In this document: piece by piece, positions 4,966 through 60,554 of the stretch
Layout: each line of letters starts with the position of its first letter
How positions within the stretch are numbered: the stretch's first letter is position 1
Source of the DNA: an uncultured candidate division Zixibacteria bacterium
Lineage (GTDB): Bacteria; Zixibacteria; MSB-5A5; UBA10806
DNA: 64,000 bases
Assembly (NCBI GenBank): GCA_963817915.1
Contig: CAWFQL010000017.1
Span: forward strand, 160,001 to 224,000
Reading direction: 5' to 3'
Translations under genes and position numbers: made by a program
Notes under the pieces: generated by a model
Databases searched by the model: none
What the model saw: the letters and a program-made list of their open reading frames with translations, nothing else
What the model was told of the DNA's origin: nothing

Positions 4966-4966
4966 A

Positions 4967-5429: not shown

Positions 5430-5432
5430 AAC

Positions 5433-16906: not shown

Positions 16907-17087
16907 CAAGTGGGGAAAATAGTAATCTATAAAAGGTTAGCTTGGCAATAGTCAGATTTTTACATTCTAAACCCCCAATTACATTCGACGCAATGACTTA
17001 TCTCTGCGCGAGCAGGTTATTTATTAATGATGATTATGGTCAGCGTTGTATCGAGAATTCTACTTTGCCATGTATGGATCAAGAATA

Positions 17088-19566: not shown

Positions 19567-19616
19567 GTGTTTGATATTAATATGATTCATTTCAAAATAG
19601 AAATAGAAGGCTGATT

Positions 19617-20909: not shown

Positions 20910-21736
20910 AAAAAGAAAACCTGACTCTCGGAATCGATGTTGGCAGCAGCTCCATCAAGATGGCGTTGGTGGAATATGGTGACAAGCCCAAAATTATCGA
21001 AATAGTAAATGAGCGCATCAGACGTCGAAACCCATCTCATGTAATTGAATCGAGGCTAGCACAGCTTCTGGGAAATTACGGGCTGGTTTACGAAGACCTG
21101 CTTTATGTGGCCTCGACTGGCGAAGGCGAACTCGTGCCAAGAAAACGTGGACATTTCTATAGCATGACGACCCATGCCATGGGAGCTTTTTATTATCATC
21201 CCGATGCTCGTACTGTCGTGGATTTGGGGGCGTTATTCTCGCGCGTAATTTCTCTCGATGGTTCGGCAAGAGTGCGCAGCTATTCGATGACTGGTCAATG
21301 CGCTTCTGGCTCCGGTCAATTTCTCGAAAATATTACTCGCTATCTCGGAGTCACAATTGACGAGGTCGGTACTCTGTCTTTAAAATCCACTAAGCCGGCT
21401 CGAACCAGCGGTATCTGCGCGGTTCTTGCGGAAACTGATGTCATCAATATGGTTTCCCAGGGAATTCCTACCGCTGATATTATTAAGGGAATTCATCTTT
21501 CAATAGCAGGGAGAATAGTTCAGCTTCTCAGCCGATTCAAGGCCGAATCCCCCGTGGTTCTAACAGGCGGGATGGCGCAGGATATCGGCCTGGTGGCGGC
21601 TCTTAAAGAATTAAGCGAAGAACGAAATCTGAAATTGGAAATACACGCGTCCAGCAATTGTGTGGCGGCCGGCGCAATTGGCGCCGCTCTCTGGGGCGGA
21701 TATAGGCACTTCAAGCTAATGGAGGCCAGGGCATGA
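20906..21736 (+). CDS. bcrD: Benzoyl-CoA reductase subunit D
   Basis: GIDVGS, ERIRRR, STGEG, GHFYSMTTHA, QCASGSGQFLENI, ICAVLAETDVIN; ATGA overlap with bcrA. Confidence 0.92.
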   Translation: MKKENLTLGIDVGSSSIKMALVEYGDKPKIIEIVNERIRRRNPSHVIESRLAQLLGNYGLVYEDLLYVASTGEGELVPRKRGHFYSMTTHAMGAFYYHPDARTVVDLGALFSRVISLDGSARVRSYSMTGQCASGSGQFLENITRYLGVTIDEVGTLSLKSTKPARTSGICAVLAETDVINMVSQGIPTADIIKGIHLSIAGRIVQLLSRFKAESPVVLTGGMAQDIGLVAALKELSEERNLKLEIHASSNCVAAGAIGAALWGGYRHFKLMEARA

Positions 21737-23469
21737 ATGATTCGAAAATCTGGAAGTCGGATAAATCGCTTCCGGAATATCCTCGAAATCTCGCAGTCAT
21801 GCTTAACAGTAATGTCGAAAGATTGGGCAATCGGCCGCTTTATCAAGAAGTAAAAAATGGCGAATTCAAGCCATTGACCTGGCCGGAATTTCAAAATGAA
21901 GTAATCAGTATTCAAAAATACCTTATAGGCGTGGGACTTAAAAAGGGCGACCGAGTTGCGATTTTATCGCCAAATCGCAGAGAGATGCTTGAGACCGAAT
22001 TAGCCATAATGTCGATGGGGGCGGTGGCCGTGCCGATCTTCGCCGGATATTCGCCTGATCAGGCTCAGATGCTTGTTGATTTTTGCGACCCTGCATTTGT
22101 TGTCGTGGCTGATAATAATCAATTCAAAAAAATCAAATTTCCTGAAAAATACGGTATCATAATTCACTTCGAAAATATCACCGGTAATCAGGCTAAAAAC
22201 CTGGTTCCATTTTCCGATCTGCTACAATCGCAGAATCAAAATGGGAAGATAGCCGGGGAAGAAATAGATTCCGATACCATCTGCCTGATGATGTACACAT
22301 CAGGCACGATGGGAAAGCCGAAATGTGTCCAATTGACGCATAGAAATATACTCTCCCAGCAGGCCGCCATGAAAATTCTCTGGAAGATAGATCATAATGA
22401 TAGACTGTTATCGTTCCTGCCATGGCATCACAGCTTCGGCGGCATATACGAAAAATATTCGGCGCTCTACAATGGAGCGCTTTTGTCGTTGGAGCACGGA
22501 TTCGGCAAAAATATCGATACGCTTATAGAAAATTGGAAGCGTGTCAAGCCGACAGCATTTTTCAGTGTGCCGCGAATTTATCAGCAAATTGTCACGCAAG
22601 TGATGAAAAATCCAGAACTCGAAAAAGAAATATTCCACGACAAGCTACGCTTCATCTTCACGGCGGCGGCTCCACTTCCCAAGAGCATCTCTGATGTCTT
22701 TGAAAAACGCGGCATTCCGGTTTACGAGGGCTGGGGCCTCACTGAGACATCCCCCTGCTGTACCGTCACCGACCCATCGGTGCCAAGAGAGGCTGGCGTA
22801 GTTGGAAAACCGATTCCCGGCGTTTCGATTGAGATTGCGAATGACGGCGAGATACTTGTCAAAGGTCCCAATGTCATGAAGGGGTATTTCCGTAATCCCG
22901 AAGCCACCAAAGCGGTTTTATTGGATGACGATTGGTTCGCAACAGGCGATGTCGGCGATTTTGCTGAAACCGGGCTGCGGCTTATTTCACGCAAGGATCG
23001 TATTTTCAAATTAAGCAATGCCGAAAAAGTTGTACCGACAGAAATTGAAAACCTTATAATCGAAAACTGCTGTTACTTATCACATGCTTATGTCACGGGT
23101 AGTGGCAAAGACTTTCCGGTGGTTTTGCTCTTTCCCAATAAAGCCATGTTTTCGCAAAAAATGGATGAATCTCGGATAACATTGAATTGCTCTTGCCCAG
23201 CAGATGTCAGGGATTTATCCCATTGCCTCGTAAATTGCCTGAGCAAATTGAATCATAAAATCGACGCTGGATATATGCGTCTGTCATCGGCGATGCTTAT
23301 TGACCACGAGCTTTCTATCGAACGAGAAGAACTCACCCCATCGATGAAGCTCGCTCCGAATGTTATCGCCAGAGCGTTTAAGGCTCATATCGAGAAACTA
23401 TACGGCAATGGCAACGGCGATGGCATTACTTCCGAAGAAGTCTATGTCCTCACTTTGGAGCAGCCATGA
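21733..23469 (+). CDS. AMP-forming acyl-CoA ligase (long-chain FACL-like subfamily)
   Basis: YTSGTMGKPK, YEGWGLTET, TGD, ELTPSMKL. Confidence 0.88.
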   Translation: MNDSKIWKSDKSLPEYPRNLAVMLNSNVERLGNRPLYQEVKNGEFKPLTWPEFQNEVISIQKYLIGVGLKKGDRVAILSPNRREMLETELAIMSMGAVAVPIFAGYSPDQAQMLVDFCDPAFVVVADNNQFKKIKFPEKYGIIIHFENITGNQAKNLVPFSDLLQSQNQNGKIAGEEIDSDTICLMMYTSGTMGKPKCVQLTHRNILSQQAAMKILWKIDHNDRLLSFLPWHHSFGGIYEKYSALYNGALLSLEHGFGKNIDTLIENWKRVKPTAFFSVPRIYQQIVTQVMKNPELEKEIFHDKLRFIFTAAAPLPKSISDVFEKRGIPVYEGWGLTETSPCCTVTDPSVPREAGVVGKPIPGVSIEIANDGEILVKGPNVMKGYFRNPEATKAVLLDDDWFATGDVGDFAETGLRLISRKDRIFKLSNAEKVVPTEIENLIIENCCYLSHAYVTGSGKDFPVVLLFPNKAMFSQKMDESRITLNCSCPADVRDLSHCLVNCLSKLNHKIDAGYMRLSSAMLIDHELSIEREELTPSMKLAPNVIARAFKAHIEKLYGNGNGDGITSEEVYVLTLEQP

Positions 23470-24668
23470 CCAGACTGAATTCACAGACAGTCCTAAAAAA
23501 TATATTAAAAGATTATTTTAAAGGATTAACATTTCCGTTGGCATGGTGCACCAGCGCCGGCCCGGCAGAAATATTGCGCGCGCTTGGATTTAATGTCTAT
23601 TTTCCGGAAAATCATGGCGCGATGTTAGGTGCGTCACGTGTCGCCGGTAACTATATTCCGCAGGCTCATCAAGCTGGATACGGTGATGAAATCTGCTCGT
23701 ATCTGACATCGGATATCGGCGCTTACCTAATGGATGAGACCCCGTTGACCGCGGCCTATGGATTGAAATCGATTCCGAAACCTGACCTAATTGTATTCAA
23801 TACCAATCAATGCCGCGAGGTTGCTGAATGGTTCGGGTATTTTGGGCGCGAATATAATTGTCCGACGGTGGGCATTTTTCCGCCGCGTCATATCAAGGAT
23901 GTCACCAAGGCTGATATTGATAATGTCTCTTTCCAATTTGAAAATCTCATAAGAACTGGCGAAAAAATTATCGGGAGGCCGCTAGACCGGCACCGACTTG
24001 AAGATGCAGTCACATTAAGCAAGAAGGCCACTGATCTTTGGAGACAGGTCCTGGAGACTGCCAGAAAATCCCCCGCGCCTCTCACCTTCTGGGACGGCAC
24101 AATTCTGATGGCTCCAATTGTCATGATGCGCGGTACTCAGACCTGTGTCGATTTTTACGAGGAGACATTAGCCGAGCTGCAATTACTGGCCCGCGGGCAT
24201 GACGCCGCGGTTCCCGGCGAGCAAGTGCGTATTTACTGGGAAGGCATGCCTATCTGGGGACGGCTTCGCGCGCTCTCGGAATTGTTCGCGGAAAACCAGG
24301 CCGCGGTCGTGGCATCGACTTATTGTAATAGTTGGATTTTCGATCAATTCGATCCCAGCAACCTGATCAGGTCAATGGCGGACGCATATACTCAGATATT
24401 TATCAATCGCAGCGAAGATGCCAAGGTCAAAATACTCCAACAGCTTTTCGATGATTACAAAATCGACGGTATTATTTATCATGATTCCAAGACATGCTTC
24501 AATAATTCCAATTGCAGATTCGACCTGCCAAAGAGATTACAGTCAATGACTAATGTGCCATCGTTGACATTGGATGGCGACCTCAATGATCTTCGATTCT
24601 TCTCTGATGGTCAGGCGCGAACCAAGATTGAAACATTTATCGAGCAATTAAAAATATCAAAGCATTAA
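23466..24668 (+). CDS. 2-hydroxyacyl-CoA dehydratase family Fe-S subunit (HgdA/FldB/BzdO-like)
   Basis: FPENHGA, ICSY, TNQC, SKTC, LDGDLND, TKIETFIE. Confidence 0.85.
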   Translation: MTRLNSQTVLKNILKDYFKGLTFPLAWCTSAGPAEILRALGFNVYFPENHGAMLGASRVAGNYIPQAHQAGYGDEICSYLTSDIGAYLMDETPLTAAYGLKSIPKPDLIVFNTNQCREVAEWFGYFGREYNCPTVGIFPPRHIKDVTKADIDNVSFQFENLIRTGEKIIGRPLDRHRLEDAVTLSKKATDLWRQVLETARKSPAPLTFWDGTILMAPIVMMRGTQTCVDFYEETLAELQLLARGHDAAVPGEQVRIYWEGMPIWGRLRALSELFAENQAAVVASTYCNSWIFDQFDPSNLIRSMADAYTQIFINRSEDAKVKILQQLFDDYKIDGIIYHDSKTCFNNSNCRFDLPKRLQSMTNVPSLTLDGDLNDLRFFSDGQARTKIETFIEQLKISKH

Positions 24669-24690
24669 TGCTATAACAAAAGAGCAAAAA

Positions 24691-25659
24691 ATGAATGAAA
24701 ACAATCACTCAATGCGCGTGGGAATAATAGGCACCGGTCCGGTGGGATCGATTCTAACTGCCCACCTGAAGGATGCCGGCGCCCATGTAGTGCCCTGTGA
24801 TATGTTCTCGCATAAAATCGATGCGATAAAGAAAAAGGGAATCCGATTAACTAATACAATCGATAAAAAAGTGGCTATCAAGGACGCCTGCTATACTATT
24901 CAAGAATTGAACGCCTACGATCTTGATTTGATTATAATCGCTGTTAAAACGCCAGATCTCAAAAAGGTAGTCAAACAGATCAAGGATATCGATAACGGCA
25001 AATTCTATGTGATGTGCGCACAAAACGGTATCGATAATGAACAGGAGATCGGACGGGAATTCACCGACCACCGCACATTGCGCATGGTTATCAATTTCGC
25101 CGGTAACATGGTTGATGATAATACAGTTCATGTAAGCTTTTTCAACCCGCCTAACTACGTCGCATCGTTGGCCGATGGCGCCAATGAGATGGCGCAAAAA
25201 TTCGCGGATACGCTAAATACTGTCGGTCTGGAGACTGAGATTCCAGTTGATATCCAGGATTATGTATGGGGTAAGGCCATCTTAAACGCCGCACTCAGCG
25301 CCGTCTGCGCGATCACCAAAAGGACCATGAAAGAGGTTATGGACTACCCGCAGACATTCGAGCTGGTGGAAGGCATTATCGATGAATCCGTGCATGTCGC
25401 CGAAAAAGAAAGAATCGAATTGGGCAATAAGTTCAGACGATTCAGTATTCGTTACCTCAAAAATGCCGGTCATCACCGGCCATCAATGCTGGTAGACCTC
25501 GAAAATGGCGACCCTACCGAAATTGACCAACTCAACGGTAAAATAGTTCAATACGGAAGAAAACATTGTCTTCCTACTCCCTTGAATCAATCGGTCACGG
25601 CCCTGGTTCACCTTCTCGAAGAAGGGGCCAAGAAAGATAAAGAGAACGGGAACAAATGA
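24691..25659 (+). CDS. Ketopantoate reductase (PanE/ApbA)-family 2-oxoacid reductase
   Basis: GTGPVG, AVKT, QNGI, WGKAILN, SMLVDL..G.PTEID.LNG. Confidence 0.85.
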   Translation: MNENNHSMRVGIIGTGPVGSILTAHLKDAGAHVVPCDMFSHKIDAIKKKGIRLTNTIDKKVAIKDACYTIQELNAYDLDLIIIAVKTPDLKKVVKQIKDIDNGKFYVMCAQNGIDNEQEIGREFTDHRTLRMVINFAGNMVDDNTVHVSFFNPPNYVASLADGANEMAQKFADTLNTVGLETEIPVDIQDYVWGKAILNAALSAVCAITKRTMKEVMDYPQTFELVEGIIDESVHVAEKERIELGNKFRRFSIRYLKNAGHHRPSMLVDLENGDPTEIDQLNGKIVQYGRKHCLPTPLNQSVTALVHLLEEGAKKDKENGNK

Positions 25660-26442
25660 TTTCTCATTTTCTCGGCATAGATATCGGATCATCCTACACT
25701 AAATTTGTGGTCATCGACGATAATCTTGGTATAGTCCATTCTAATGTCATTCCTACACTCAGCCGGCATCTCGAGAATTATGAAAAGGCCATTTCGGCCA
25801 TACGATATGAATTTAATATCAAACGAACTTGCAGCACCGGCTACGGCCGCAAGAACGCCAAATCTGATTTGCAAAAAACAGAGCTAATTTGCGCTGCTGC
25901 CGGGGTCTCAGTATTGCATCCAATAAATAAAAGCATTCTCGATATCGGCGGGGAAGATATTAAAATCATTGAATCGGACGCCGCGGGCAATGTCGTCAAT
26001 TTCCACATGAATGATAAATGCTCAGCCGGTACCGGTTCATTTATAGCGGAGATAGCCGAGACAGGCGGAACTTGATTTAGCCGAGATGAGCGAATTATCA
26101 AAAAAAGCACATTCGGATAAAACCATCAATAGCTTTTGCACCGTATTCGCGAAGAGCGAAATATTGGGATGGAAATTCAGCGGCGTACCGATAGAAGATA
26201 TTGCCAGAGGCATTTATTTGTCGGTAATCGATAGAGTGCGCAAAATGCCGTTCAAAAAGAATCTTCCGCTATTTTTATGTGGCGGTGTCATAGCCTATCA
26301 TCCGCATCTCGCTGATTTGCTGAAGGAACGGATACAATTGGAAATTAATGTAGTTGAAAAGCCGCAATACGCTGTAGCGCTGGGAGCCGCGGCCCTGGCT
26401 CGAAAAGAATATGTTAATCAACTTGCGCCGACAACCCATTAG
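25656..26442 (+). CDS. 2-hydroxyacyl-CoA dehydratase activator (HgdC/FldI-type ATPase), split by +1 frameshift near 26062
   Basis: GIDIGSSYTK, TGYGR, DIGGED, MNDKCSAGTG, SFCTVFAKSE, ALGAA. Confidence 0.85.
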
Positions 26443-26513
26443 TTTATATTCATGCGTGTCGATAATTTGCTCTATTCGGAAAATACTCATTGTTCGGGAG
26501 GAAAAGGGTTAAG

Positions 26514-27566
26514 ATGAAAATTACAGCATACCAGATGGTCGCCAAAGATGCCCCATTTGAGCTTACCGAAATGCAAATTCCAAATGATCTCGATGGTAAT
26601 GCCGTAGTCGAGGTCGCCGGATGCGGAGTATGCCATACCGATATCAGCTTCTGGCATTACGGAGTGCCAACCCGCCATCCGATGCCATTGGTATTAGGCC
26701 ATGAAATCGCGGGCACAGTGATAGAAGGCCCCGCTAACCTTAAGGGTAAATCTGTCATAGTCCCGGCTGTTCTTCCATGCGGACAATGCGATCTTTGCAA
26801 GCGAGATCGAGGCAATATTTGCCAGAGCCAGAAAATGCCGGGTAATGATTTCCACGGCGGTTTTGCCAGCCATGCAATTGTGCCCCCGCAATATCTTGTG
26901 CCTGTTCCAAAAGCGGCCCTGGCCGAGCATTCTTTGGCGGAATTATCTGTAATCGCCGATGCTGTCTCCACTCCTTATCAGGTGGTTGTCAAAAGCGATC
27001 TTAAGCCTGGAGATCTGGCAATTGTAATTGGTGTCGGCGGGATAGGTATCTATGCTGCCCAATTAGCCAAAATCAAAGGCGGCAAAGTTATCGCATTAGA
27101 TATTGCCCAGGAAAAGCTCGATCAACTTAAAGCTATAGGCATTGAGAACACGATCAATATCAAAGGACTTGATATCAAGGCTATCAAAGATCAAGTAAAA
27201 AAATTATGCAAAGAATTAGGCGCGCCGAACCATAGCTGGAAGATCTATGAAACATCAGGGACGAAAGCGGGCCAGGATCTGGCATTCGCCTTGCTCGGCA
27301 TCGCTAGCACTCTTTCGATTGTCGGGTTCACTCTCGATAAATTGGAATTGCGCTTGAGCAACCTTATGGCATTCGATGCCAATATCATCGGCACCTGGGG
27401 CTGTAAACCGGAGCTGTATCCTGATGTCATAAATCTGGTCGCCGAAAAGAAACTGGCGATAAAACCATTTACAGAGACTCGTCCGATGTCTCAGATCAAC
27501 GATGTATTTCAGGAGACATTGCAGCACAAATTGCTCAAACGTTCGGTATTGACTCCGGATTTTTAG
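26514..27566 (+). CDS. had: 6-hydroxycyclohex-1-ene-1-carbonyl-CoA dehydrogenase
   Basis: Zn-dependent MDR: GCGVCHTD, GHE, KMPGNDFHGGFASH, RLSNLMAFDA...WGC; bcr context. Confidence 0.9.
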   Translation: MKITAYQMVAKDAPFELTEMQIPNDLDGNAVVEVAGCGVCHTDISFWHYGVPTRHPMPLVLGHEIAGTVIEGPANLKGKSVIVPAVLPCGQCDLCKRDRGNICQSQKMPGNDFHGGFASHAIVPPQYLVPVPKAALAEHSLAELSVIADAVSTPYQVVVKSDLKPGDLAIVIGVGGIGIYAAQLAKIKGGKVIALDIAQEKLDQLKAIGIENTINIKGLDIKAIKDQVKKLCKELGAPNHSWKIYETSGTKAGQDLAFALLGIASTLSIVGFTLDKLELRLSNLMAFDANIIGTWGCKPELYPDVINLVAEKKLAIKPFTETRPMSQINDVFQETLQHKLLKRSVLTPDF

Positions 27567-27636
27567 GCAGAGTCAGGTATATGAATTATGATAATAATGA
27601 ATACCATGAAATAAATTGGATGCGAGGGATTAGAAA

Positions 27637-28722
27637 ATGAGCAATAATCTTCAAAGTCATAATATTGTCGATCTTGATTTCAAGGAAATCTTATATGAAT
27701 TGCGGCCATGTCTCGACAAAAACGGCAAAGCGGTCGATGGTCTCTTCAATGCCTGGATTTTTCTGAATAATCCCACTCAATATAATTCATACACGACAGC
27801 CGCAGTCAAAGAGATCATTCTCGCCATACGCCAGGCATCCAATGAACGGTCTGTTGTAGCAGTAGTTTTTACGGGTGTTGGCGATAAAGCATTCTGCACG
27901 GGCGGCAATACCAAAGAATACGCCGAATATTATTCAGGTCGTCCGCTTGAATACAAGCAATATATGCGTCTCTTCAACGATATGATCACATCGATTTTGA
28001 TGTGCGACAAGCCAGTCATCTGTCGTGTTAACGGTATGCGAATCGCTGGCGGCCAGGAAATCGGCATGGCCTGCGATCTCACGGTATCCAGCGATATGGC
28101 GATCTTCGGCCAGGCTGGCCCGAAGCATGGTAGCGCTCCCGATGGCGGAAGCACTGATTTTCTGCACCTGTATGTCGGAGTCGAACGAGCCATTCAGAGT
28201 TGCACATTGTGTGAGATGTGGAGCGCTTATGAGGCCAAACAATTGGGATTGATCACCGATGCCATACCTGTCCTAAAGGTCGACGGTAAATATGTTAGAA
28301 ATCCTTTGGTCGTAACCGATCGATGGCTCGATGAATCGGGAGATATTGTCTATGGCCGCAGAAAGAACGGCGAACAACTTAAGGCTGGCAAAGACCTGAT
28401 GGCGAAAGGCACAATCGACCTGAAACCTCTTGATGATGCCGTGAACGTGTTGACGACTAAATTGCTATACACCATGCCCGATTGTATCAGCAAAACCTTG
28501 AATAGCATGAGAAAGAAAAAATTAGAGCATTGGGATAGAAACCAGCAATCAAACCGCGACTGGCTGGCGTTGAATATGATGACAGAAGCCAAGGCCGGCT
28601 TCCGCGCGTTCAATGAAGGCCCCAAGGACAATCGTGAAATCGATTTTGTCAAACTTCGCCTGATGCTTGCGCAGGGACATCCCTGGGATGATGAATTACT
28701 CAATGCAATATTGCCGAGGTAA
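27637..28722 (+). CDS. oah: 6-oxocyclohex-1-ene-1-carbonyl-CoA hydrolase
   Basis: QYNSYTT, FCTGGNTKEYAEYY, GQAGPKHGSAPDGGSTDFL, WLALNMMTEA. Confidence 0.95.
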   Translation: MSNNLQSHNIVDLDFKEILYELRPCLDKNGKAVDGLFNAWIFLNNPTQYNSYTTAAVKEIILAIRQASNERSVVAVVFTGVGDKAFCTGGNTKEYAEYYSGRPLEYKQYMRLFNDMITSILMCDKPVICRVNGMRIAGGQEIGMACDLTVSSDMAIFGQAGPKHGSAPDGGSTDFLHLYVGVERAIQSCTLCEMWSAYEAKQLGLITDAIPVLKVDGKYVRNPLVVTDRWLDESGDIVYGRRKNGEQLKAGKDLMAKGTIDLKPLDDAVNVLTTKLLYTMPDCISKTLNSMRKKKLEHWDRNQQSNRDWLALNMMTEAKAGFRAFNEGPKDNREIDFVKLRLMLAQGHPWDDELLNAILPR

Positions 28723-28727
28723 TATAG

Positions 28728-30250: not shown

Positions 30251-30275
30251 AAACTTTAGTGGTAATTAATATTTT

Positions 30276-31424: not shown

Positions 31425-31426
31425 TC

Positions 31427-31894
31427 ATGGTACAGATAAAATTAACGGTCAATGGATTCTCTCGCGAGGTATTGGTGCAGCCGCATGAAACCCTTCTTTA
31501 TACCTTGAGAGAACGATTAAATCTGACCGGCACTAAAAAGGGATGCGATCAGGCGTCATGCGGCAGTTGTACGGTTATTGTAGAAGGCAAACCAGTATTG
31601 AGCTGCATAACCCCGGTCGTGAGATGCGACGGCAAAAAAATCCTCACAATTGAGGGAGTCGCCGAGAATGGTCAGCTTCATCCGGTGCAGAAATACCTAG
31701 TTGAAAAAGGTGCTATCCAATGCGGCTACTGCACTCCGGGGATTGTAATGACCGCAGTCGCCTTTCTCGAAAAGAATCCTGATCCCACAATAGAACAAAT
31801 CCGCGAAGCGTTATCCGGTAATCTTTGCAGATGCACAGGCTATACGAAAATTGTCGAAGCAGTACAATCGGCGGCGGAGGAATTAAAGGCATGA
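31427..31894 (+). CDS. hcrC: 4-hydroxybenzoyl-CoA reductase gamma subunit (2x[2Fe-2S])
   Basis: GCDQASCGSC, QCGYCTPG, GNLCRCTGY. Confidence 0.8.
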   Translation: MVQIKLTVNGFSREVLVQPHETLLYTLRERLNLTGTKKGCDQASCGSCTVIVEGKPVLSCITPVVRCDGKKILTIEGVAENGQLHPVQKYLVEKGAIQCGYCTPGIVMTAVAFLEKNPDPTIEQIREALSGNLCRCTGYTKIVEAVQSAAEELKA

Positions 31895-34200
31895 GCGGCA
31901 CAGTCGGCAAACCGATTCCATTTATCGATGCCTTAGAGAAGGTGACCGGCCGTGCCATGTTCACTGGCGATTTTAGCTTCCCCAATATGCTTTACGCGAA
32001 ATTTCTGCGCAGTCCCCACCCTCATGCTCGAATCAAGAATATTGATTTTTCCGAGGCGCTCAATTACCCCGGAGTCCGCGCAGTTACAATCGGGAAAGAC
32101 TTGCCTATACCGTTCGGGGTACTTCCGGTCAGCCATGATGAAACCGCCATGGCGGTAGATAAAGTCCGATTTATCGGCGAGATTGTTGCGGGGGTTGCCG
32201 CAGAGTCTGAGGAAGCCGCAAACGAAGCCATAAAATTGATCAAGGTTGAATATGAAGTATTGCGGCCATTCCTGACGCCGTCCGATTCACTCGAAGTGTG
32301 CGCACCCGATGAACAAATCCATCTTCATGCCAAGAATGGCACCAATATTCATAAAATGGCTCAACTCCATTTCGGAGAGCCTGAAAAAGAACTTGAATCG
32401 GCGCATTCGAAAATATCTGTTCATTGCAAATTTGCCGGAGTTACTCACGCGTTCACGGAGCCTCATGCCACAATCGCTACCTGGAATGCCAACGGAACAT
32501 TGACGGTGATCTCAGCCACGCAGGTTCCCCATTATCTTCATCGCGCTCTCTCGAATGTGCTCGGATTGCCGCTGCATTTGATTCAAGTCAAAAAGCCATT
32601 CTTGGGCGGCGGATTCGGAGGCAAATCCGATCCCTTCCCGCACGAGATTGTCACGGCCTATCTGGCTATGAAAACTAATCGACCTGTCAAATGTGTCTTC
32701 TCGCGCGAAGAAGTATTTCTCAATAATCATGGGCGGCATCCTACCGAACTCGATTTATCTGTTGGTTGTGATAAGGAAGGTAAAATTACAGCCATTAACG
32801 CTGATATTGTCATCGATGGCGGCGCGTTTGGAAGCTTTGGTGTTGTGACCACGTATTATAACGGTGTCCTGCTTCAAGGGCCATATCGAGTCAATAACTT
32901 CGGATTTCGGACACGCCGAGTTTATACCAATAAACCGCAATGCGGAGCTATGCGTGGCCATGGTGCCGTAAATCCTCGATATGCTATGGAAATCGCTCTT
33001 GATATAATAGCGCATGAGATCGGAATCGATCCTTGCGACCTGCGCGATAAAAATTTTCTGCCATCGGATACTTTGACGGTCGGTCAGCTTCGTATCACCA
33101 GCAATGGTATCCGCGATTGCCTCAAGGCTGTTCGCACCCGTTCGAATTGGGATGAGCGGCATGGCAAATTGCCTTATGGACACGGGCTTGGAGTTGGGTG
33201 CGGTTTTTACATCAGCGGCAGTGCCTTGCCTATTATATGGAATAAATATCCTCAAAGCGTGGTGCATGCCAAGCTCGATTTCGATGGTCGAATCGTCATC
33301 TTCAGCGGCGCCAGCGATATCGGCCAGGGAAGCGATACGATGCTGGCTCAGATTGCCGCTGATGTTTTCGGTATTCCCATGAGCAATGTCCAGGTCGTAG
33401 CGGCTGATACGAAGCTTTCGCCGGTTGATCTCGGCAGCTATTCCAGCAGAGTGACATTCATGGCCGGAAATGCCTGCAAAGCCGCATCCGAGAAAATGAG
33501 AAATGTTATCGCTGTTGCGGTCTCGAACGAGAAAGGAATTCCGGCCGATTCAATCATATTTAAAAACGCCGGACTATATACCGAAAAAGATGAATTGATA
33601 GTCTCATGGAATGAGGCTGTTGATCTGGCACTCGCCGGGCGGGGAGCCTTTGTCGAATCCGGATATTATTTCTCTCCGAAATTAGGCGGTGACTTCAAGG
33701 GCTCCGGCGCTGGACTTAGCCCGTCGTATAGCTTCGGCGCATTTGTAAGTGAAGTCGAAGTAAATCCCGAGTCCGGCAAAGTCCGAGTCATAAAAATCTG
33801 GGGCGCGCACGATTGCGGCAGAGCCTTAAATCCATTGTCGGTTGAAGGACAAATTCAGGGTTGCGCGCACATGGGATTGGGGCAGGTCATTTCGGAAGAG
33901 CTTATTTATCGCGACGGCCTTTTATTCAATGCCAATTTTGCAGATTACACAATCCCAATGGCAAACGATACTCCGCCAATGGATATTTCTATTATCGAAT
34001 CGATGGACAAAGAAGGGCCGTTTGGAGCCAAAGAAGCGGGGGAGGGACCGATTCATCCTGTACTGCCATCTATCGGCAATGCTATCTATGACGCGGTTGG
34101 AATCCGAATATTCGAATTGCCGATTACACCAGATAAAATTTTAGCAAAATTGAAAGAGAAAGAATCCGCCAATGTCGGAATCCCAATATATAAAGGCTAA
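31891..34200 (+). CDS. hcrA: 4-hydroxybenzoyl-CoA reductase alpha subunit (molybdopterin, xanthine oxidase family)
   Basis: TQVPHY, GGGFGGK, GAMRGHG, GSYSSRVTFM, GPFGAKEAGEG; bcr context. Confidence 0.82.
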   Translation: MSGTVGKPIPFIDALEKVTGRAMFTGDFSFPNMLYAKFLRSPHPHARIKNIDFSEALNYPGVRAVTIGKDLPIPFGVLPVSHDETAMAVDKVRFIGEIVAGVAAESEEAANEAIKLIKVEYEVLRPFLTPSDSLEVCAPDEQIHLHAKNGTNIHKMAQLHFGEPEKELESAHSKISVHCKFAGVTHAFTEPHATIATWNANGTLTVISATQVPHYLHRALSNVLGLPLHLIQVKKPFLGGGFGGKSDPFPHEIVTAYLAMKTNRPVKCVFSREEVFLNNHGRHPTELDLSVGCDKEGKITAINADIVIDGGAFGSFGVVTTYYNGVLLQGPYRVNNFGFRTRRVYTNKPQCGAMRGHGAVNPRYAMEIALDIIAHEIGIDPCDLRDKNFLPSDTLTVGQLRITSNGIRDCLKAVRTRSNWDERHGKLPYGHGLGVGCGFYISGSALPIIWNKYPQSVVHAKLDFDGRIVIFSGASDIGQGSDTMLAQIAADVFGIPMSNVQVVAADTKLSPVDLGSYSSRVTFMAGNACKAASEKMRNVIAVAVSNEKGIPADSIIFKNAGLYTEKDELIVSWNEAVDLALAGRGAFVESGYYFSPKLGGDFKGSGAGLSPSYSFGAFVSEVEVNPESGKVRVIKIWGAHDCGRALNPLSVEGQIQGCAHMGLGQVISEELIYRDGLLFNANFADYTIPMANDTPPMDISIIESMDKEGPFGAKEAGEGPIHPVLPSIGNAIYDAVGIRIFELPITPDKILAKLKEKESANVGIPIYKG

Positions 34201-35116
34201 ATCTACCAGCCATGCTTTCGAGATTGCCGGGAATTTTCCCGGGAATTCTATTTATTCCGGCGGCGGTTCCGATATTCAATTAGCTCTCAAACAGGAATTG
34301 ATTCAAAAGAAAGTAATAATCGATATAAGCGAAATAGCCGATTTGCGCGGCGTAAAATCAGAGGGCAATTCGCTGTTGATAGGCTCCATGACTACGCTAG
34401 ATGATTTGATATCTACTACGGCTGTCAATGATTCTTATCCTCTTTTAATTGCCGCGGCAAGGAGCATAGCCTCGCCCGTGATTCGCGTAACCGCCACAGT
34501 CGGCGGCAATCTTCTGGTTGCTAATCGCTGTATGTTTTACAATCAATCGGAATTCTGGCGCAATGCAGCGGGTTCATGTCTCCGCGACAGGGGTGATTCC
34601 TGCCTTGCGACCGGCGGACATAGCAAATGCTTTTCTCGCAATGTCTCCGATCTGGCGCCTGCCCTGATCGCCCTCGGCGCCAATGCGATTATTCAAAATA
34701 AAAAGGGCATCAATGAAATACCTGTTGAAGAGTTGTATGCGCCTGATGGAATCAATTTTCACACAAACCTGAATGATGACGCCATTCTGATTGGAGTCCG
34801 ATTGAATAATTCCAATCTTCCCTGGCAATTTCACAAGCTTCGACGAAGAGAGAGCATCGATTTTACATCGCTCACGATTGCCGCATCGATTCATAGAGAT
34901 GACAGAATCAAAATATGTCTTAACGGCGTCTCAATGTCGCCTGTCGCGTACTCCGCCGATTTGCGGGGATGGAGTCTTGAAGAGGCTTACAAGAAAATTA
35001 TAACGTCATGCAGAATAGTAAACAATGATCTAATGCCGTTGAAATACCGCAGAGAAATGATCAAAGTATATTTGAAAAATATAGAGGATAACCTGATTAA
35101 AAAAATAAGGTCATGA
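34172..35116 (+). CDS. hcrB: 4-hydroxybenzoyl-CoA reductase beta subunit (FAD, [4Fe-4S] insert)
   Basis: ATVGGNL followed by the four-Cys insert RC.FYNQS.FWR....SCL....DSC........C; KLRRRESIDF. Confidence 0.82.
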   Translation: MSESQYIKAKSTSHAFEIAGNFPGNSIYSGGGSDIQLALKQELIQKKVIIDISEIADLRGVKSEGNSLLIGSMTTLDDLISTTAVNDSYPLLIAAARSIASPVIRVTATVGGNLLVANRCMFYNQSEFWRNAAGSCLRDRGDSCLATGGHSKCFSRNVSDLAPALIALGANAIIQNKKGINEIPVEELYAPDGINFHTNLNDDAILIGVRLNNSNLPWQFHKLRRRESIDFTSLTIAASIHRDDRIKICLNGVSMSPVAYSADLRGWSLEEAYKKIITSCRIVNNDLMPLKYRREMIKVYLKNIEDNLIKKIRS

Positions 35117-35170
35117 TTAAATTTGAAGTATTAATTACCCTTTTAGGATAGTATATCTGGAGGAATCTAA

Positions 35171-36382
35171 ATGAAAAACATCCCCGCGTCATATAAAAAA
35201 GCGCGAATACCTTATGGGACTTGGGGAAGCAGCTACTTCCCCGCCTGGCAGACATCGCCGCTGGCCGAGGTCAATATCGGGCAATTCGCGGGCGAATCGA
35301 TGAATCGCATTTTGGGCATGAAAAAAGTCCCCAAGAGCAATTTGGATTTCTTGGTCATCGGCTCGACCATTCCCTGGCATTGGAAATTCTGGACCGCGCC
35401 GATGGTGGCAAGTTGTATCGATCATCGAATCCCAGGTTACCATGTCGAACAGGCATGCGCCACAGGTTTGCAGGCTGTGATGGTTGCCGCATCCGAAGTC
35501 GAAAGCGGCTCCCATGATGTTGTCGGTGTGCTTACTTTCGATCGCACATCCGATTCGCCTGTAGGTGTTTTCCCCGAACGGCGCTCTTATCAGCGCACGC
35601 AAGCCTTAGCCGATGTCTGGGATAATTTCGGCTTTGATCCTGCTACGGGGAAGGCGATGATGACATGTGCTGGACTGGCCGCCCGAAAATACCGCACTGA
35701 CAAACGAGAAGTAGATGAGCTTACCGCTTATCGCTATGACCAATATTTCAATGCCAAAAACAGCGGCTTTTTGAAAAAAGTTCTGGTGCCATTGGAAATT
35801 CTCAATCTACAGGGAAAATCAATGGGCTGGATTGATGATGATCTGGGCGTTCGGCAATTATCATTGGATAGCCTGCTTTCGATGCGCGAGCTCGATACCT
35901 GTATTACGCCGGGCACACAGACCCACGCTTCGGATGGCATGGCGACGTTGCTTGTTACCGATTCCGAAAAAGCGAAACAAATCAGTTTAAGACCCGAAAT
36001 CGATATCCAATTTATAGCCAAGACTGAAATTAGAACTTTTCCCAGCCTGATGCCGGAAGCTCCTGCTCTGGCAGTACAGAAGCTTCTCAAGCGAACAGGT
36101 TTGACAATGGCCGACATGACTGTAGTCAAAAATCATAATCCTTTCGCAGTTAATGATGTCATCTTCGCCAAGCTTTTGGAATACGATTGGAAGAAGATGA
36201 ATAATACCGGCTGTCCATTGGTCTGGGGGCATCCGCAGGGACCGACTTTGACAAGGGTCATAATCGAGGCCTTGGAAGAGGCTGTTGATATTGGCGGCGG
36301 CTATGTGCTTATATTTGGATGCGCTGCCGGTGATGTCGGTATCGCGGCTATTTTCAAAGTTGCCGACGGAGGTAAAAAATAA
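35171..36382 (+). CDS. Thiolase-family protein with atypical motifs
   Basis: QACATG, HASDG, NHNPFAVND, GHPQGPT, GCAAGD. Confidence 0.8.
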   Translation: MKNIPASYKKARIPYGTWGSSYFPAWQTSPLAEVNIGQFAGESMNRILGMKKVPKSNLDFLVIGSTIPWHWKFWTAPMVASCIDHRIPGYHVEQACATGLQAVMVAASEVESGSHDVVGVLTFDRTSDSPVGVFPERRSYQRTQALADVWDNFGFDPATGKAMMTCAGLAARKYRTDKREVDELTAYRYDQYFNAKNSGFLKKVLVPLEILNLQGKSMGWIDDDLGVRQLSLDSLLSMRELDTCITPGTQTHASDGMATLLVTDSEKAKQISLRPEIDIQFIAKTEIRTFPSLMPEAPALAVQKLLKRTGLTMADMTVVKNHNPFAVNDVIFAKLLEYDWKKMNNTGCPLVWGHPQGPTLTRVIIEALEEAVDIGGGYVLIFGCAAGDVGIAAIFKVADGGKK

Positions 36383-38463
36383 TGAAAACGATGAGACAAT
36401 CGACATTAGAGACACTGGGCCTCGGCAATGTCATAGATATATTCCGCAACGGTAAACTTCCGGCTAACACCGAATCGCTGGTAGATAATGTTTTCGGCGT
36501 ATCGAGCAAGCGCGGCGCATTGGTAATTTCCGGGGCCAATGGTATTGTCGGCGCGGGCAAGATGATGCAACTCGGTTCGAGACTCATACCGCATGGTGTT
36601 ACGGTAGTCGGCCTTGATTTTCCCGGCGCGCCCGATGGTATAGGCCGTCAGTATAAAGGTCTGAGAAATACATTCGGCCAGGCCAAAGCCGATGCTCTCA
36701 TGTCCGATATAATAAGATTCCATTACGATGGCCGCGCATTGCCATCGAGATTGCGCGAGCTTAATCCGCGATTTTTGCTGGAAGCTATCCCCGAAGTATT
36801 ATCAATCAAAAAAGCACATTACGCCGTATTTCGCGAGGCCTTTCCGGGGATCGAAATTCGTTCGGTGACTTCAGGATTTCCAAGTTCTGAGCTTGGAGTA
36901 GGAATCGCACATCCGTCATTCCCCCATGAAATAAACAAAATTTTTGAAATTGTTGAGACTAAGCCATCGCCGGTGACTCATCTTCTCTGGTCGATCGGGT
37001 TGATGCCGATTCCTGTAAGTGATCATTGGTCATTCGTGCTTGATGTTTTATTCTGCGGCCTGATGAATTCCGGGCTTCGTTATCATCACGCCTCGAATAT
37101 GCCTTATTGGAAAATCGATAAATATATTCGCCGGTCATTCGGTCCGAATCCTTTCAGGGCGCATGATGCTATCGGCGCCAAGGGAGCCAATTTCCTCACC
37201 TGGTCATGCCTGCATCATCTATCCGAAAAGTACGGTCCGCTCTTCACGCCAAGCGAGGAATTGGAATATCATAAAGAATCCGGCCAGGACTGGTATCCAT
37301 TGAACCATCTCCGCCCATTGGTTAATTGGACGATTTCTGAAAGCGAGGACGATGAATTCCAGAATTGGATATTGGGCCCGTTAGTTCAAATGACAACACT
37401 GATGCTTCATGAAAAACGATCTCACCTTTCGCATATCAATGCCATCGGTGAGCTCTGCGCGCAATTCCGCAAAGGAATTTTGGCCGTCATTCGAGATATT
37501 GGAGCCGATGCCGCTATCAAGAGGGTGGAGGCTTATCATAGGCTATATCCGCTGGCCGCTGGCAAATGCTGGTATCCCGACACACTCGGCCAGATCGAGC
37601 AGCCGCAATGGCAGCAGCTTTATGTCAACGCTGAATACGATGGCGCAGTCGGCGTGATAAGTATCAGTCGCGAAAGCTATAATTCCGATGTCGACGCCGA
37701 ACTAAATCGCGCGATCGATTGGCTTAAATCGGATAAAATTGAAAGCGTCATTGTGACCAACGACTTCCATCTTTCCACTCAAATGGTCGGCGCCGATACG
37801 GCGGAATTCTATCCGGCCCTGAAGGACACCGCCCGTGGTACCGCGATTTCAGCCGATTGGTCGAAAACGGCTCGCAGACTGCACGATGAATTTAAAGTCT
37901 CGGTCGGTTTCATCAATGGCAAACGCTGCTTGGGCGGTATGCTGGAGCTAATGATGCATTGTCATTATCTGATCGCACTCGAAGATGCGACTCTCGGAAT
38001 GCCCGAGGTTACACTGCCGGTAATCCCCGGTATGGAAGGATGCCATTGGCCGTTGCGTAAGGCGAAAAAGGATGACCAATCCAAGATCCTCGGAATGCTC
38101 CTAACTGGTGAATATGTGAAAGCCAAAACCGCAGTCGGATGGCTCCTGGATTTCGCGGGTTCAATCGATGATTGTTTGAAGACTGCGTGGAATATCGCCA
38201 GCGGAAGCAAACATGATATCAAATCTCGTACTCTAAATCAGAATGCTTTCGATGTATCCCTAAATGGCAGTCTGCGACCCGCGAATAATGTTGTTACCGA
38301 TGCCGCCCGCAAGGCGATATTCGAATGTATCCAGCAATCGTGCGCCGCTACGCTGGGTGAAGCATTGAAGATCCAGGCACGCCATTCAGGCTCATTTATG
38401 GCTGGAAAATATTGCAATGATGGAGCAATAGGCGCTGACGCTTCCAAGGTGCTTTCAGTTTAG
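36382..38463 (+). CDS. 3-hydroxyacyl-CoA dehydrogenase / enoyl-CoA hydratase fusion (HAD N-terminal, crotonase C-terminal)
   Basis: GANGIVGAG, LEAIPE, then VGAD, CLGGMLEL, GMPEVTLPVIPG. Confidence 0.8.
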   Translation: MKTMRQSTLETLGLGNVIDIFRNGKLPANTESLVDNVFGVSSKRGALVISGANGIVGAGKMMQLGSRLIPHGVTVVGLDFPGAPDGIGRQYKGLRNTFGQAKADALMSDIIRFHYDGRALPSRLRELNPRFLLEAIPEVLSIKKAHYAVFREAFPGIEIRSVTSGFPSSELGVGIAHPSFPHEINKIFEIVETKPSPVTHLLWSIGLMPIPVSDHWSFVLDVLFCGLMNSGLRYHHASNMPYWKIDKYIRRSFGPNPFRAHDAIGAKGANFLTWSCLHHLSEKYGPLFTPSEELEYHKESGQDWYPLNHLRPLVNWTISESEDDEFQNWILGPLVQMTTLMLHEKRSHLSHINAIGELCAQFRKGILAVIRDIGADAAIKRVEAYHRLYPLAAGKCWYPDTLGQIEQPQWQQLYVNAEYDGAVGVISISRESYNSDVDAELNRAIDWLKSDKIESVIVTNDFHLSTQMVGADTAEFYPALKDTARGTAISADWSKTARRLHDEFKVSVGFINGKRCLGGMLELMMHCHYLIALEDATLGMPEVTLPVIPGMEGCHWPLRKAKKDDQSKILGMLLTGEYVKAKTAVGWLLDFAGSIDDCLKTAWNIASGSKHDIKSRTLNQNAFDVSLNGSLRPANNVVTDAARKAIFECIQQSCAATLGEALKIQARHSGSFMAGKYCNDGAIGADASKVLSV

Positions 38464-38482
38464 GTAGATTTTATATTGATAT

Positions 38483-38513
38483 AAAGGCGGCATCATTCGA
38501 TACCGCCTTTTTT
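38483..38513. terminator. Bidirectional intrinsic terminator closing the aromatic cluster
   Basis: AAAGGCGG...CCGCCTTTTTT between convergent genes. Confidence 0.8.
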
Positions 38514-38541
38514 GTTGAATATTTGCGATTGAATTTCAAAT

Positions 38542-39042: not shown

Positions 39043-39056
39043 TCAAAGAATTATGA

Positions 39057-56893: not shown

Positions 56894-57066
56894 ACTGAAA
56901 TCTTCAGTATTCCGTAATTATCGATACATGATATTTTAGGGCGTCTACCAATAATTAAAATCCTTGCCATTATCGTCCCGTTTTTTTAATTTATGTAAAT
57001 AGGCTGCATTTTTTGATGTTGGCCCTGAAACTGTGTCTTGATGATGATTTTGGGAATTCGAGGTTG

Positions 57067-58218: not shown

Positions 58219-58294
58219 AGGTTTTAAAATTATTAATACGATATGAAGTGTTCATTAAAATATAGAATTGATTGCGAAAGAGAGGTTCTCTAAG

Positions 58295-60553: not shown

Positions 60554-60554
60554 T

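Follow-up and report, generated by a model that had tools for sequence, protein, structure and literature searches.

What do an acyl-CoA ligase, a lone subunit related to 2-hydroxyacyl-CoA dehydratases, a PanE-family reductase, and an ATP-dependent activator do in an operon for benzoyl-CoA reduction, where they lie between the genes for the ring reductase and those for ring opening? This arrangement occurs in a 64,000-nt stretch of an uncultured Zixibacteria genome (GCA_963817915.1; Zixibacteria; MSB-5A5; UBA10806), namely positions 160,001-224,000 of contig CAWFQL010000017.1, which is referred to here as the window. The lone subunit is a member of the HGD-D family encoded at 23466-24668, and is labeled HGDD. 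On balance, we favor the view that the ligase, HGDD, the PanE-like reductase, and the activator, together with a divergent thiolase (thl2) and a 693-aa protein (p693), constitute a peripheral catabolic module within a class I benzoyl-CoA reductase operon. With similar, somewhat better than even confidence, gene content suggests that these enzymes would turn a C6-C3 aromatic 2-oxo or 2-hydroxy acid into a C6-C1 aryl-CoA and acetyl-CoA.

The genes belong to one co-oriented block on the + strand (17046-38463) whose open reading frames (ORFs) are tightly spaced or overlapping, in the order bcrCBAD, AMP-forming ligase, HGDD, PanE-like reductase, activator, had-oah-dch, short-chain dehydrogenase/reductase (SDR), thiolase 1 (thl1), hcrCAB, thl2, and p693. 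Overlaps of 4 nt (ATGA) join bcrD to the ligase, the ligase to HGDD, and the PanE-like gene to the activator, and a gap of 22 nt separates HGDD from the PanE-like gene. An earlier note, made from the DNA sequence, had described the ligase, dehydratase, PanE, and activator genes as tightly coupled, which these overlaps and the short gap bear out. Every gene that it had named was found again in place on the + strand; the start of the block, which it had set at 21733, moves upstream to bcrC at 17046. Proteins of the window were classified with Pfam and NCBIfam profiles, with equivalog cut-offs as the standard of identity. The six genes of the proposed module are as follows.

21733-23469, + strand: AMP-forming acyl-CoA ligase, 578 aa (PF00501, 244.7 bits; AMP-binding_C_3; no equivalog model reached)
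23466-24668, + strand: HGDD, a lone subunit resembling HadB alpha (PF06050, 207.2 bits)
24691-25659, + strand: PanE/ApbA-family NAD(P)H reductase (TIGR00745, 188.5 > 141.35)
25656-26442, + strand: HgdC/HadI-type ATP-dependent activator, read in two frames (25656-26075 and 26086-26442; TIGR00241 halves of 98.3 and 56.5 bits)
35171-36382, + strand: thl2, divergent thiolase (Thiolase_N 53 bits, Thiolase_C 59 bits)
36382-38463, + strand: p693, divergent fusion of 3-hydroxyacyl-CoA dehydrogenase (HAD) and crotonase, 693 aa (ECH_1, 28.1 bits; 3HCDH_N, E 0.021; 3HCDH, E 0.0016)

Recurrence of the module beside ring reductases

Relatives of HGDD form more than 120 clusters at 64-77% identity, from metagenome-assembled genomes named Zixibacteria, KSB1, and Marinimicrobia/Fidelibacterota. 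Gene neighborhoods were compared in a set containing one genome per species, in which 599 stretches were matched and 573 encode an HGDD relative. The best 80 loci were examined, the gene content of high-GC loci (e.g. L013, L019, L029, L086) being taken from tblastn labels and not from longest ORFs. Thauera-type bcr subunits lie beside HGDD in 30 of these 80 loci, and bcr or had/oah/dch in 33, which are referred to as benzoyl-CoA-linked. All 33 have PanE, 32 the activator, 30 the ligase, and nine hcrA. Ligase, PanE, and activator accompany HGDD together in 29 of the 33, as the earlier note had expected of a co-conserved group of four. PanE adjoins HGDD in every one of these loci, the ligase is directly upstream of HGDD in 30, and the activator is intact in the 32 that have it. 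The incomplete loci comprise three that are cut by contig ends near HGDD (L004, L055, L043) and one substitution (L031). Genes most often run in the order (MarR)-bcrCBAD-ligase-HGDD-PanE-activator-(thiolase)-had-oah-dch-(HAD/crotonase fusion)-SDR-(thiolase)-(hcr with XdhC and MobA), and the hosts are named Zixibacteria, Marinimicrobia, Bacteroidota, Ignavibacteriota, Chlorobiota, Acidobacteriota, Eisenbacteria, and Lentisphaeria.

A second, independent architecture was sought in six loci that were fetched from genomes of the window's own phylum with HGDD at 51-54% identity and BcrB lacking. Five of the six read thl2 and/or p693-HGDD-activator-ADP-forming acyl-CoA ligase (ACD)-Na+/solute symporter-PanE-had-oah(-dch), with thl2 and p693 at 76-78% and 64-67% identity, respectively, to those of the window. 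Four of these five have bzdNOPQ subunits, a ferredoxin, and a BzdV-like gene upstream, within 18 kb, and the symporter of these bzd-type clusters is a protein of 470 aa (PF00474, 108 bits). A transporter, an activating enzyme, a reductase, a dehydratase, a hydratase/dehydrogenase, and a thiolase thus stand between the ring reductase and the ring-opening genes, and this second architecture, as read from gene content, strengthens the apparent link between module and reductase. The substitution in L031 is a bcr-type cluster that carries ACD and the symporter instead of the AMP-forming ligase, so the two activating enzymes look interchangeable.

Bacteroidota add a further variant. Locus L063 lies beside a bzd reductase (BzdN 480.7 > 453.8, BzdO 676.2 > 448.6, BzdQ 455.1 > 380.2) and reads small ORF, BzdV/NfnB-like gene, ACD, HGDD, PanE, HisC-family aminotransferase, second PanE, MobA, and XdhC, the block ending with a four-subunit 2-oxoacid:ferredoxin oxidoreductase. 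The aminotransferase (304.5 > 276.55) stands between two PanE paralogues in all three loci L062-L064. Contexts with no reductase also exist: two Thermoplasmatota loci (L074, L077) read HGDD-ACD-AMP ligase-PanE with an aldehyde:ferredoxin oxidoreductase nearby, and an Anaerolineae locus (L061) reads HAD/crotonase-HGDD-ACD-AMP ligase-PanE-activator. The constant core across these arrangements is HGDD with its activator, usually joined by a PanE-type reductase and a CoA-activating enzyme, and the logic that this gene content suggests is the conversion of a 2-oxoacid, by way of a 2-hydroxyacyl-CoA, to an enoyl-CoA.

A separate arrangement was seen in Planctomycetota and Verrucomicrobiota (L021-L060, e.g. 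L042:7825-14053), where a FadB-like gene (699 aa) is followed by HGDD, activator, a metallo-beta-lactamase, and a FabH-like ketoacyl synthase III. No ring reductase occurs within 10 kb of it, and it represents a different use of the lone HGD-D family. Two of the Planctomycetota loci (L027, L029) have thl2 and p693 homologues near HGDD on the opposite strand; as this concerns two loci only, it was not used as evidence.

The distribution of the module was counted in 285 genomes of the window's phylum, with HGDD called at E ≤ 1e-80 and BcrB or BzdO by a score over the equivalog cut-off. HGDD is present in 24 of them, BcrB in 10, and BzdO in 40, and no genome has both BcrB and BzdO. A class I reductase is encoded by 23 of the 24 HGDD genomes, compared with 50 of the 285 overall. 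All nine genomes with HGDD at 65% identity or more have BcrB, and nine of the ten BcrB genomes have HGDD, the remaining one (G082) being 84% complete. BzdO is found in 14 of the 15 genomes whose HGDD is at 51-54% identity; the one without it, G171, has a completeness of 83% and carries had-oah next to the module. BzdO occurs without HGDD in 26 genomes. Since HGDD is nested among reductase-bearing genomes and the reductase often occurs without HGDD, the module appears to need the reductase and not the reverse. Such a nested pattern is what would be expected of an optional peripheral pathway that funnels substrate into ring reduction.

Identity of HGDD and its partner enzymes

HGDD is one of five HGD-D matches in the genome, the others being two pieces of bcrC, bcrB, and one double-cubane gene on contig C12; HGDD is therefore without a beta partner. 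It reaches no equivalog cut-off, scoring 197.5 with HadB alpha (cut-off 750), 140.7 with BcrB (486.55), 91.6 with BzdO (448.6), and 63.6 with the double-cubane model NF040772 (350). HGDD was accordingly rejected as a double-cubane protein, and, from these scores and its place outside the BcrB clade in phylogenetic trees, as BcrB or BzdO. The double-cubane gene itself (C12:355479-357268; locus L083:5243-7284) passes its model (470.7 > 350), has its own activase, and has genes for Mla lipid transport as neighbors; with it, the genome holds a second ATP-driven HGD-D system, unrelated to the first. A single open frame at C9:70563-72266 (- strand; 1409 aa) has two BcrAD/BadFG ATPase domains and looks like a large fused activase-type protein.

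Among solved structures, HGDD is closest to HadB (3o3m_A; 147.3 bits, E 5.3e-42), followed by MbdO (96.3) and BzdO (85.1), with residues 23-396 aligned to 30-398 of 3o3m_A. The three cysteines that bind the [4Fe-4S] cluster of HadB align with C77, C116, and C344 of HGDD, which are invariant in 55 family sequences. A search of 1.84 billion representatives returned 1489 relatives at E ≤ 0.001 and 219 at E ≤ 1e-30. Of 95 full-length representatives (E ≤ 1e-60), HadB is the sole family match in 64, BcrB in four, and none is found in 27; a single protein passes the HadB cut-off (P0248) and a single one the BcrB cut-off (P0268), and these two mark the respective clades in the trees.

Two trees of HGD-D proteins were built as quick searches with support from the SH-like approximate likelihood ratio test (SH-aLRT) only, one of them under a mixture model. 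In both, the HadB and BcrB clades share one half of the tree and every lone HGD-D protein falls outside it, with support of 100 in one tree (a split of 49 of 90 rows) and 91 in that under the mixture model (53 of 95 rows). The BcrB clade, outside which HGDD falls, has support of 100. HGDD of the window sits in a clade of 21 rows (98), and the bzd-linked HGDDs form a second reductase-linked clade of five rows (100). HGDD thus groups neither with aryl-CoA reductase subunits, a placement that the earlier note had named as counting against its reading, nor with HadB. The enzyme is no FldBC-type heterodimer: HGDD is a single subunit with no heterodimer partner, and the cluster has no FldA-type CoA-transferase. 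Bar reductase subunits and L076, no second HGD-D gene was found beside HGDD in the related loci scanned. Pfam and NCBIfam profiles found no CoA-transferase in the block, and the genome's single family III transferase is on contig C16.

A model of two HGDD copies scored 0.81, against 0.00 for the best of three controls; among solved proteins, 20 of 30 same-chain pairs attain this score, as does one of 23 single chains. Between runs, at least 94% of contacts agree, with a predicted local distance difference test (pLDDT) value of at least 93, and the modeled interface (residues 70-76, 113-125, 136-157, 316-317, 345-356) encircles the cluster cysteines. Since related heterodimers have been solved, the model is to be taken as likeness and not proof. 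From its family and this model, HGDD is proposed to be a homodimeric 2-hydroxyacyl-CoA dehydratase.

The PanE-like protein passes the subfamily model TIGR00745 only, with all equivalog ketopantoate-reductase models under cut-off. Its gene is the only ApbA-family gene of the genome. Of the order's 24 genomes, only two encode a full-length ApbA protein, and these are exactly the two with the cluster (G000, G259); in G259 the match directly follows HGDD. panB and panC are on another contig with no panE beside them. Because ApbA is restricted to the cluster and panB-panC lie elsewhere without panE, a housekeeping ketopantoate reductase is disfavored, and this candidate was set aside on the phyletic pattern. 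A 2-oxoacid (arylpyruvate) reductase is proposed instead, from family and context. PDB searches with the ligase and the PanE-like protein gave no specificity signal; 3wfi is a PDB entry that we take to be a D-mandelate dehydrogenase. The best PDB matches of the ligase are an oxalate-CoA ligase (129 bits) and a feruloyl-CoA synthetase (122 bits), and it is proposed, as a putative assignment, to activate 2-hydroxyacids such as aryl-lactate.

The protein p693 aligns over its full length with HAD fusions to enoyl-CoA hydratase that score strongly; the alignment shows no variation in its GxGxxG motif or at either catalytic Glu of the crotonase (E522, E542). Homologues of thl2 at 76-79% identity stand directly upstream of p693-HGDD in the bzd-type clusters, or of bcrC in L002 and L011. 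On these grounds p693 is the proposed cinnamoyl-CoA hydratase-dehydrogenase, and thl2 the proposed 3-oxo-3-arylpropionyl-CoA thiolase.

The proposed route and its rivals

The remaining genes of the block, into which the module would feed, are listed below.

17046-18258, + strand: bcrC, read in two frames (17046-17651 and 17635-18258; TIGR02263 halves of 223.9 and 182.8 bits, covering profile positions 4-176 and 181-380; cut-off 421.15)
18307-19566, + strand: bcrB, Thauera-type (TIGR02260, 636.2 > 486.55; grouped with P0268 in the trees)
19617-20909, + strand: bcrA, ATPase subunit (TIGR02259, 462.5 < 578; PF01869, 235.3 bits)
20843-21736, + strand: bcrD, ATPase subunit (TIGR02261, 286 < 312.85; PF01869, 179.8 bits)
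26490-27566, + strand: had, 6-hydroxycyclohex-1-ene-1-carbonyl-CoA dehydrogenase (TIGR03201, 442.7 > 338.65)
27637-28722, + strand: oah, 6-oxocyclohex-1-ene-1-carbonyl-CoA hydrolase (TIGR03200, 572.3 > 464.45)
28728-29504, + strand: dch-like, cyclohexa-1,5-dienecarbonyl-CoA hydratase (TIGR03189, 234.6 < 292.5, yet the best family)
29501-30250, + strand: SDR of the 3-oxoacyl/3-hydroxyacyl reductase family (PF13561, 210.9 bits), candidate 3-hydroxypimelyl-CoA dehydrogenase
30276-31424, + strand: thl1, thiolase (TIGR01930, 421.4 > 240.55), candidate 3-oxopimelyl-CoA thiolase
31367-31894, + strand: hcrC-like [2Fe-2S] subunit (TIGR03193, 181.4 < 257.8; Fer2_2, 115 bits)
31825-34200, + strand: hcrA-like molybdopterin subunit of 4-hydroxybenzoyl-CoA reductase (TIGR03194, 824.1 < 994.55)
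34172-35116, + strand: hcrB-like FAD subunit with an extra Cys-rich loop (best PDB match 1rm6_B, 129.9 bits; equivalog 187.1 < 404.55)

The Bcr subunits, in the order C-B-A-D, are two of HGD-D type and two BadF/BcrA-type ATPases, of which BcrB alone is over its cut-off. The hcr genes are all under theirs; 1rm6_A is the only PDB match of HcrA at E ≤ 1e-80 (621 bits), and four cysteines in the inserted loop of HcrB align with those of the Thauera protein 1rm6_B, which indicates that both are genuine relatives of Thauera 4-hydroxybenzoyl-CoA reductase. Homologues of the SDR at 59-68% identity follow dch in related loci. A scan of 19500-39400 for promoters and terminators was uninformative (26 terminator-like sites, all intragenic, vs 21.3 ± 4.2 expected).

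In the proposed route, for which we infer all substrates, the directions of the steps, and the assignment of the two beta-oxidation sets, the PanE-like enzyme would reduce phenylpyruvate or 4-hydroxyphenylpyruvate with NAD(P)H to the (R)-aryl-lactate. The AMP-forming ligase would activate this to aryl-lactyl-CoA, a step for which the sister clusters would use the ADP-forming ligase along with the Na+/solute symporter. The HGDD homodimer, primed with one low-potential electron by the ATP-dependent activator, would then remove the alpha-hydroxyl by a ketyl-radical mechanism to give cinnamoyl-CoA or 4-coumaroyl-CoA. Hydration and oxidation by p693 and cleavage by thl2 would produce benzoyl-CoA or 4-hydroxybenzoyl-CoA and acetyl-CoA. 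HcrCAB would strip the 4-hydroxyl, BcrCBAD would reduce the ring, Dch, Had, and Oah would open it, and the SDR and thl1 would start the lower pathway. No canonical benzoate-CoA ligase over cut-off was found in the genome, and likewise no indolepyruvate:ferredoxin oxidoreductase; both absences are weakly compatible with such a funnel.

Several observations weigh against this route. It is only genomic context that points to an aromatic substrate. The ligase resembles only generic fatty-acyl, oxalyl, and feruloyl-CoA ligases, and could be the operon's own benzoate or 4-hydroxybenzoate ligase, since none was found elsewhere in the genome. Both thl2/p693 and SDR/thl1 can be explained by the lower benzoyl-CoA pathway alone, and the window's own cluster has no aminotransferase of the kind seen in Bacteroidota. 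HGDD is one subunit with no transferase in its cluster, which sets it apart from previously studied enzymes: to our knowledge, all characterized 2-hydroxyacyl-CoA dehydratases are alpha-beta heterodimers working with a CoA-transferase. It also has two nearly invariant cysteines (C28 and C287, in the 55 sequences) that are absent from HadB, the first aligning with a Cys of the reductase subunit MbdO, so a different chemistry is possible. Sister HGDD clades occur without a reductase, such as those of Fibrobacterota (L068, L075; L068:5917-12141) with activator-HGDD-ACD. There, an acyl-CoA dehydrogenase relative and a 577-aa, GcdA-sized carboxyltransferase are neighbors, a context that hints at 2-hydroxyglutaryl-CoA as the substrate of some HGDD members; these loci may be a single-subunit version of the hydroxyglutarate pathway. 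The neighborhoods describe only the best 80 of at least 573 related loci, and the phyletic counts overstate independence because genomes of one phylum are kin. Finally, bcrC and the activator are frameshifted in this assembly. The aryl-lactate funnel that the earlier note had put forward is thus upheld in part: the separate clade, co-conservation, recurrence with bzd-type clusters, and phyletic nesting speak for it, and what falls away or counts against it is the FldBC-type heterodimer, the FldA-type transferase, any specificity signal from the ligase, and the integrity of two genes, besides the contextual nature of the aromatic substrate.

The strongest rival, though a fairly unlikely one, holds that the ligase is a mere benzoate/4-hydroxybenzoate-CoA ligase and that HGDD, its activator, and PanE serve the metabolism of a 2-oxoacid that is not aromatic, such as one from Leu, Glu, or lactate, the location beside the reductase being regulatory or historical and not a matter of feeding. 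The genome is consistent with this in that its best match to the benzoate-CoA ligase model TIGR02262 (253 < 375) is an acetate-CoA ligase; its other ligases were rejected as candidates for this role, one being that acetate-CoA ligase (768 > 729) and one resembling long-chain ligases. HGDD also travels with PanE, ACD, and ligase in the absence of a reductase in Thermoplasmatota, Anaerolineae, and Planctomycetota, and its best family model is 2-hydroxyisocaproyl-CoA dehydratase alpha. However, ACD accompanies HGDD even where the reductase is absent, so the activating enzyme belongs to the HGDD module. Moreover, the linkage recurs with two reductase types, two activating enzymes, and at least eight named phyla; within the window's phylum the reductase is strongly enriched among HGDD genomes (23/24 vs 50/285); and the module lies between reductase and ring-opening genes with overlapping stop and start codons.

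That the block is decaying and non-functional in this genome, with bcrC and activator as pseudogenes whatever the ancestral function, is unlikely. One extra base at 17631 splits bcrC and another at 26061 splits the activator, and both genes are unbroken in the related loci examined. Alignment to the intact BcrC of L002 breaks between 17630 and 17632, and alignment to the intact 252-aa activator of L002 between 26060 and 26062. However, no residues are lost at either site, and both flanks keep 59-70% identity to the intact homologues. The family III CoA-transferase at C16:3144-4257 is likewise read in two frames, and overlapping ORF pairs of the same family at 4868-5891 and 52033-53860 of the window (Gate-domain and LVIVD-repeat) look split. 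Because other genes of the assembly seem to be split likewise, indel errors of assembly are favored for 17631 and 26061; together, the split genes suggest a raised indel error rate in the assembly and not gene decay.

It is quite unlikely that HGDD and its activator are not a dehydratase but use ATP to drive the low-potential reduction or dehydroxylation of a substituted aromatic or alicyclic CoA ester, as a second, simpler relative of the ring reductase, with the PanE-like enzyme reducing a keto group of the substrate or product. The HGD-D superfamily does hold reductases (BcrB/BzdO and the homodimeric double-cubane protein, the latter also encoded in this genome), the cysteines C28 and C287 could be read in this way, and the predicted homodimer resembles the quaternary type of the double-cubane protein. 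Against this, HGDD falls far under the double-cubane and BcrB cut-offs and outside the BcrB clade, and the PanE gene (33/33), the carboxylate-activating enzyme (30/33), and the aminotransferase of L062-L064 fit 2-hydroxyacid chemistry better.

Very unlikely is a reverse hydroxyglutarate shunt downstream of ring cleavage, in which HGDD would hydrate glutaconyl-CoA (from glutaryl-CoA) to 2-hydroxyglutaryl-CoA, CoA would come off (yielding ATP where ACD is present), the PanE-like enzyme would oxidize 2-hydroxyglutarate to 2-oxoglutarate, and 2-oxoglutarate:ferredoxin oxidoreductase, which is the ferredoxin donor of the Thauera reductase, would regenerate reduced ferredoxin for the ring reductase. 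The shunt likewise predicts the nesting of HGDD within reductase-bearing genomes, and it could account for the delta, alpha, beta, and gamma subunits of a 2-oxoglutarate/2-oxoacid:ferredoxin oxidoreductase in L063 and for the carboxyltransferase and acyl-CoA dehydrogenase of L068 and L075. It fits poorly in that the irreversible AMP-forming ligase found in bcr-type clusters is unable to free CoA, and the cluster has no thioesterase or transferase; glutaryl-CoA dehydrogenase is not conserved in the clusters (acyl-CoA dehydrogenase relatives occur in three reductase-linked loci, at the margins); the symporter between ACD and PanE suggests import of a substrate; oxidation of a 2-hydroxyacid with NAD(P)+ is thermodynamically unfavorable; and the two PanE paralogues and aminotransferase of L062-L064 would have no role.

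Known systems and implications

The phenyllactate dehydratase of Clostridium sporogenes, FldABC with its initiator FldI, reportedly described by Dickert et al. in 2002, is a close parallel to the proposed aryl-lactate route. Both would convert (R)-phenyllactyl-CoA to cinnamoyl-CoA with an HGD-D iron-sulfur enzyme and an ATP-dependent activator, on a substrate derived from aromatic amino acids via arylpyruvate and aryl-lactate. The present system differs in having one HGD-D gene from a separate clade in place of FldB and FldC, an AMP- or ADP-forming ligase and no FldA-type CoA-transferase in the cluster, and a PanE-family reductase in place of a D-2-hydroxyacid dehydrogenase; in addition, the enoyl-CoA is proposed to be beta-oxidized to benzoyl-CoA here, whereas it is reduced to phenylpropionate there. 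HadBC/HadI of Clostridioides difficile (3o3m) provides the best match of HGDD among both solved structures and NCBIfam models, and shares the three cluster cysteines. HGDD nevertheless stays far below the HadB cut-off, lacks a HadC partner, has two extra conserved cysteines, and resides in a ring-reduction operon.

The ring-reduction genes resemble the cluster of Thauera aromatica, with bcrB, had, and oah over their equivalog cut-offs and the same Bcr order, and HcrA and HcrB are closest to Thauera HcrCAB (1rm6), with the Cys loop of HcrB kept. They differ in the four extra genes between bcrD and had, in that BcrA, BcrD, BcrC, Dch, and HcrC/A/B are under equivalog cut-offs, and in that a regex search of six frames found no ferredoxin motif (CxxCxxCxxxCP) in the window. 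The hosts here are uncultured members of the FCB group and other lineages. The beta-oxidative conversion of cinnamoyl-CoA to benzoyl-CoA, by a hydratase/dehydrogenase and a thiolase, is known from plants and from enc-type clusters of Streptomyces. The shortening of cinnamoyl-CoA to benzoyl-CoA and acetyl-CoA would be common to both, but there cinnamate comes from phenylalanine ammonia-lyase in an aerobic, biosynthetic pathway, whereas here an oxygen-sensitive radical dehydratase is proposed to supply the enoyl-CoA, which would feed ring reduction.

A search of full-text literature, mostly outside subscription journals, found no description of the cluster or of a single-subunit dehydratase combined with a PanE-type reductase. 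A recent study of the benzene degrader BzS1 (PMC13416013, 2026) lays out phenylpyruvate, phenyllactyl-CoA, cinnamoyl-CoA, and benzoyl-CoA as a route, labeled speculative, by which an intermediate formed from benzene could be processed downstream. The dehydratase is given there as unassigned, and a singular gene about 30% identical to FldB is mentioned (PMC13416013). The intermediates are the same as here, including the need for an alpha-eliminating dehydratase, although the passages seen contain no conserved operon of module and reductase (PMC13416013).

The window also holds genes outside the block. An archaeal-type GatE (47009-48904, - strand; NF003107, 538.5 > 456) is encoded in this apparently bacterial genome, along with a class I c synthetase with GlnRS-type anticodon-binding domains and a GluRS-like gene (13969-15537, + strand; 42818-44260, - strand), an unusual combination of routes to Gln-tRNA. 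At 57013-63999 (+ strand), outside the benzoyl-CoA block, lie an acyl-CoA dehydrogenase (AcrC best, 413.9 < 640), an archaeal-type 3-hydroxy-3-methylglutaryl-CoA synthase (525.7 > 244), a thiolase-domain protein, a carboxyltransferase, a crotonase, and a biotin carboxylase, which may be a leucine/isovalerate-type or mevalonate-linked cluster.

More tentatively, and with somewhat less than even confidence, the lone HGD-D proteins may be a previously unrecognized class of homodimeric, activator-dependent radical dehydratases that, along with a PanE-type 2-oxoacid reductase, a CoA-activating enzyme, and a pair of hydratase/dehydrogenase and thiolase, make up a carbon-conserving pathway from 2-oxoacids to acyl-CoAs shorter by two carbons. 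The radical 2-hydroxyacyl-CoA dehydratases would thereby gain a member with a single subunit. Anaerobically, phenylalanine is known to reach benzoyl-CoA via phenylacetyl-CoA and phenylglyoxylate, a route with an alpha-oxidation step that was worked out in denitrifiers. If the proposed reading is true, the version in the reductase operon would be a complete, undescribed anaerobic route for mineralizing phenylalanine and tyrosine, one that bypasses the alpha-oxidation of phenylacetyl-CoA, uses redox steps at the level of NAD(P) only, and keeps two carbons as acetyl-CoA. It would be widespread in uncultured FCB-group bacteria, Acidobacteriota, and other sediment lineages, and would explain how strictly anaerobic, protein-degrading uncultured bacteria oxidize aromatic amino acids in full. 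The genes offer enzymology a compact, testable set, and they could serve as a marker when aromatic amino acid turnover in anoxic sediments is surveyed by metagenomics.

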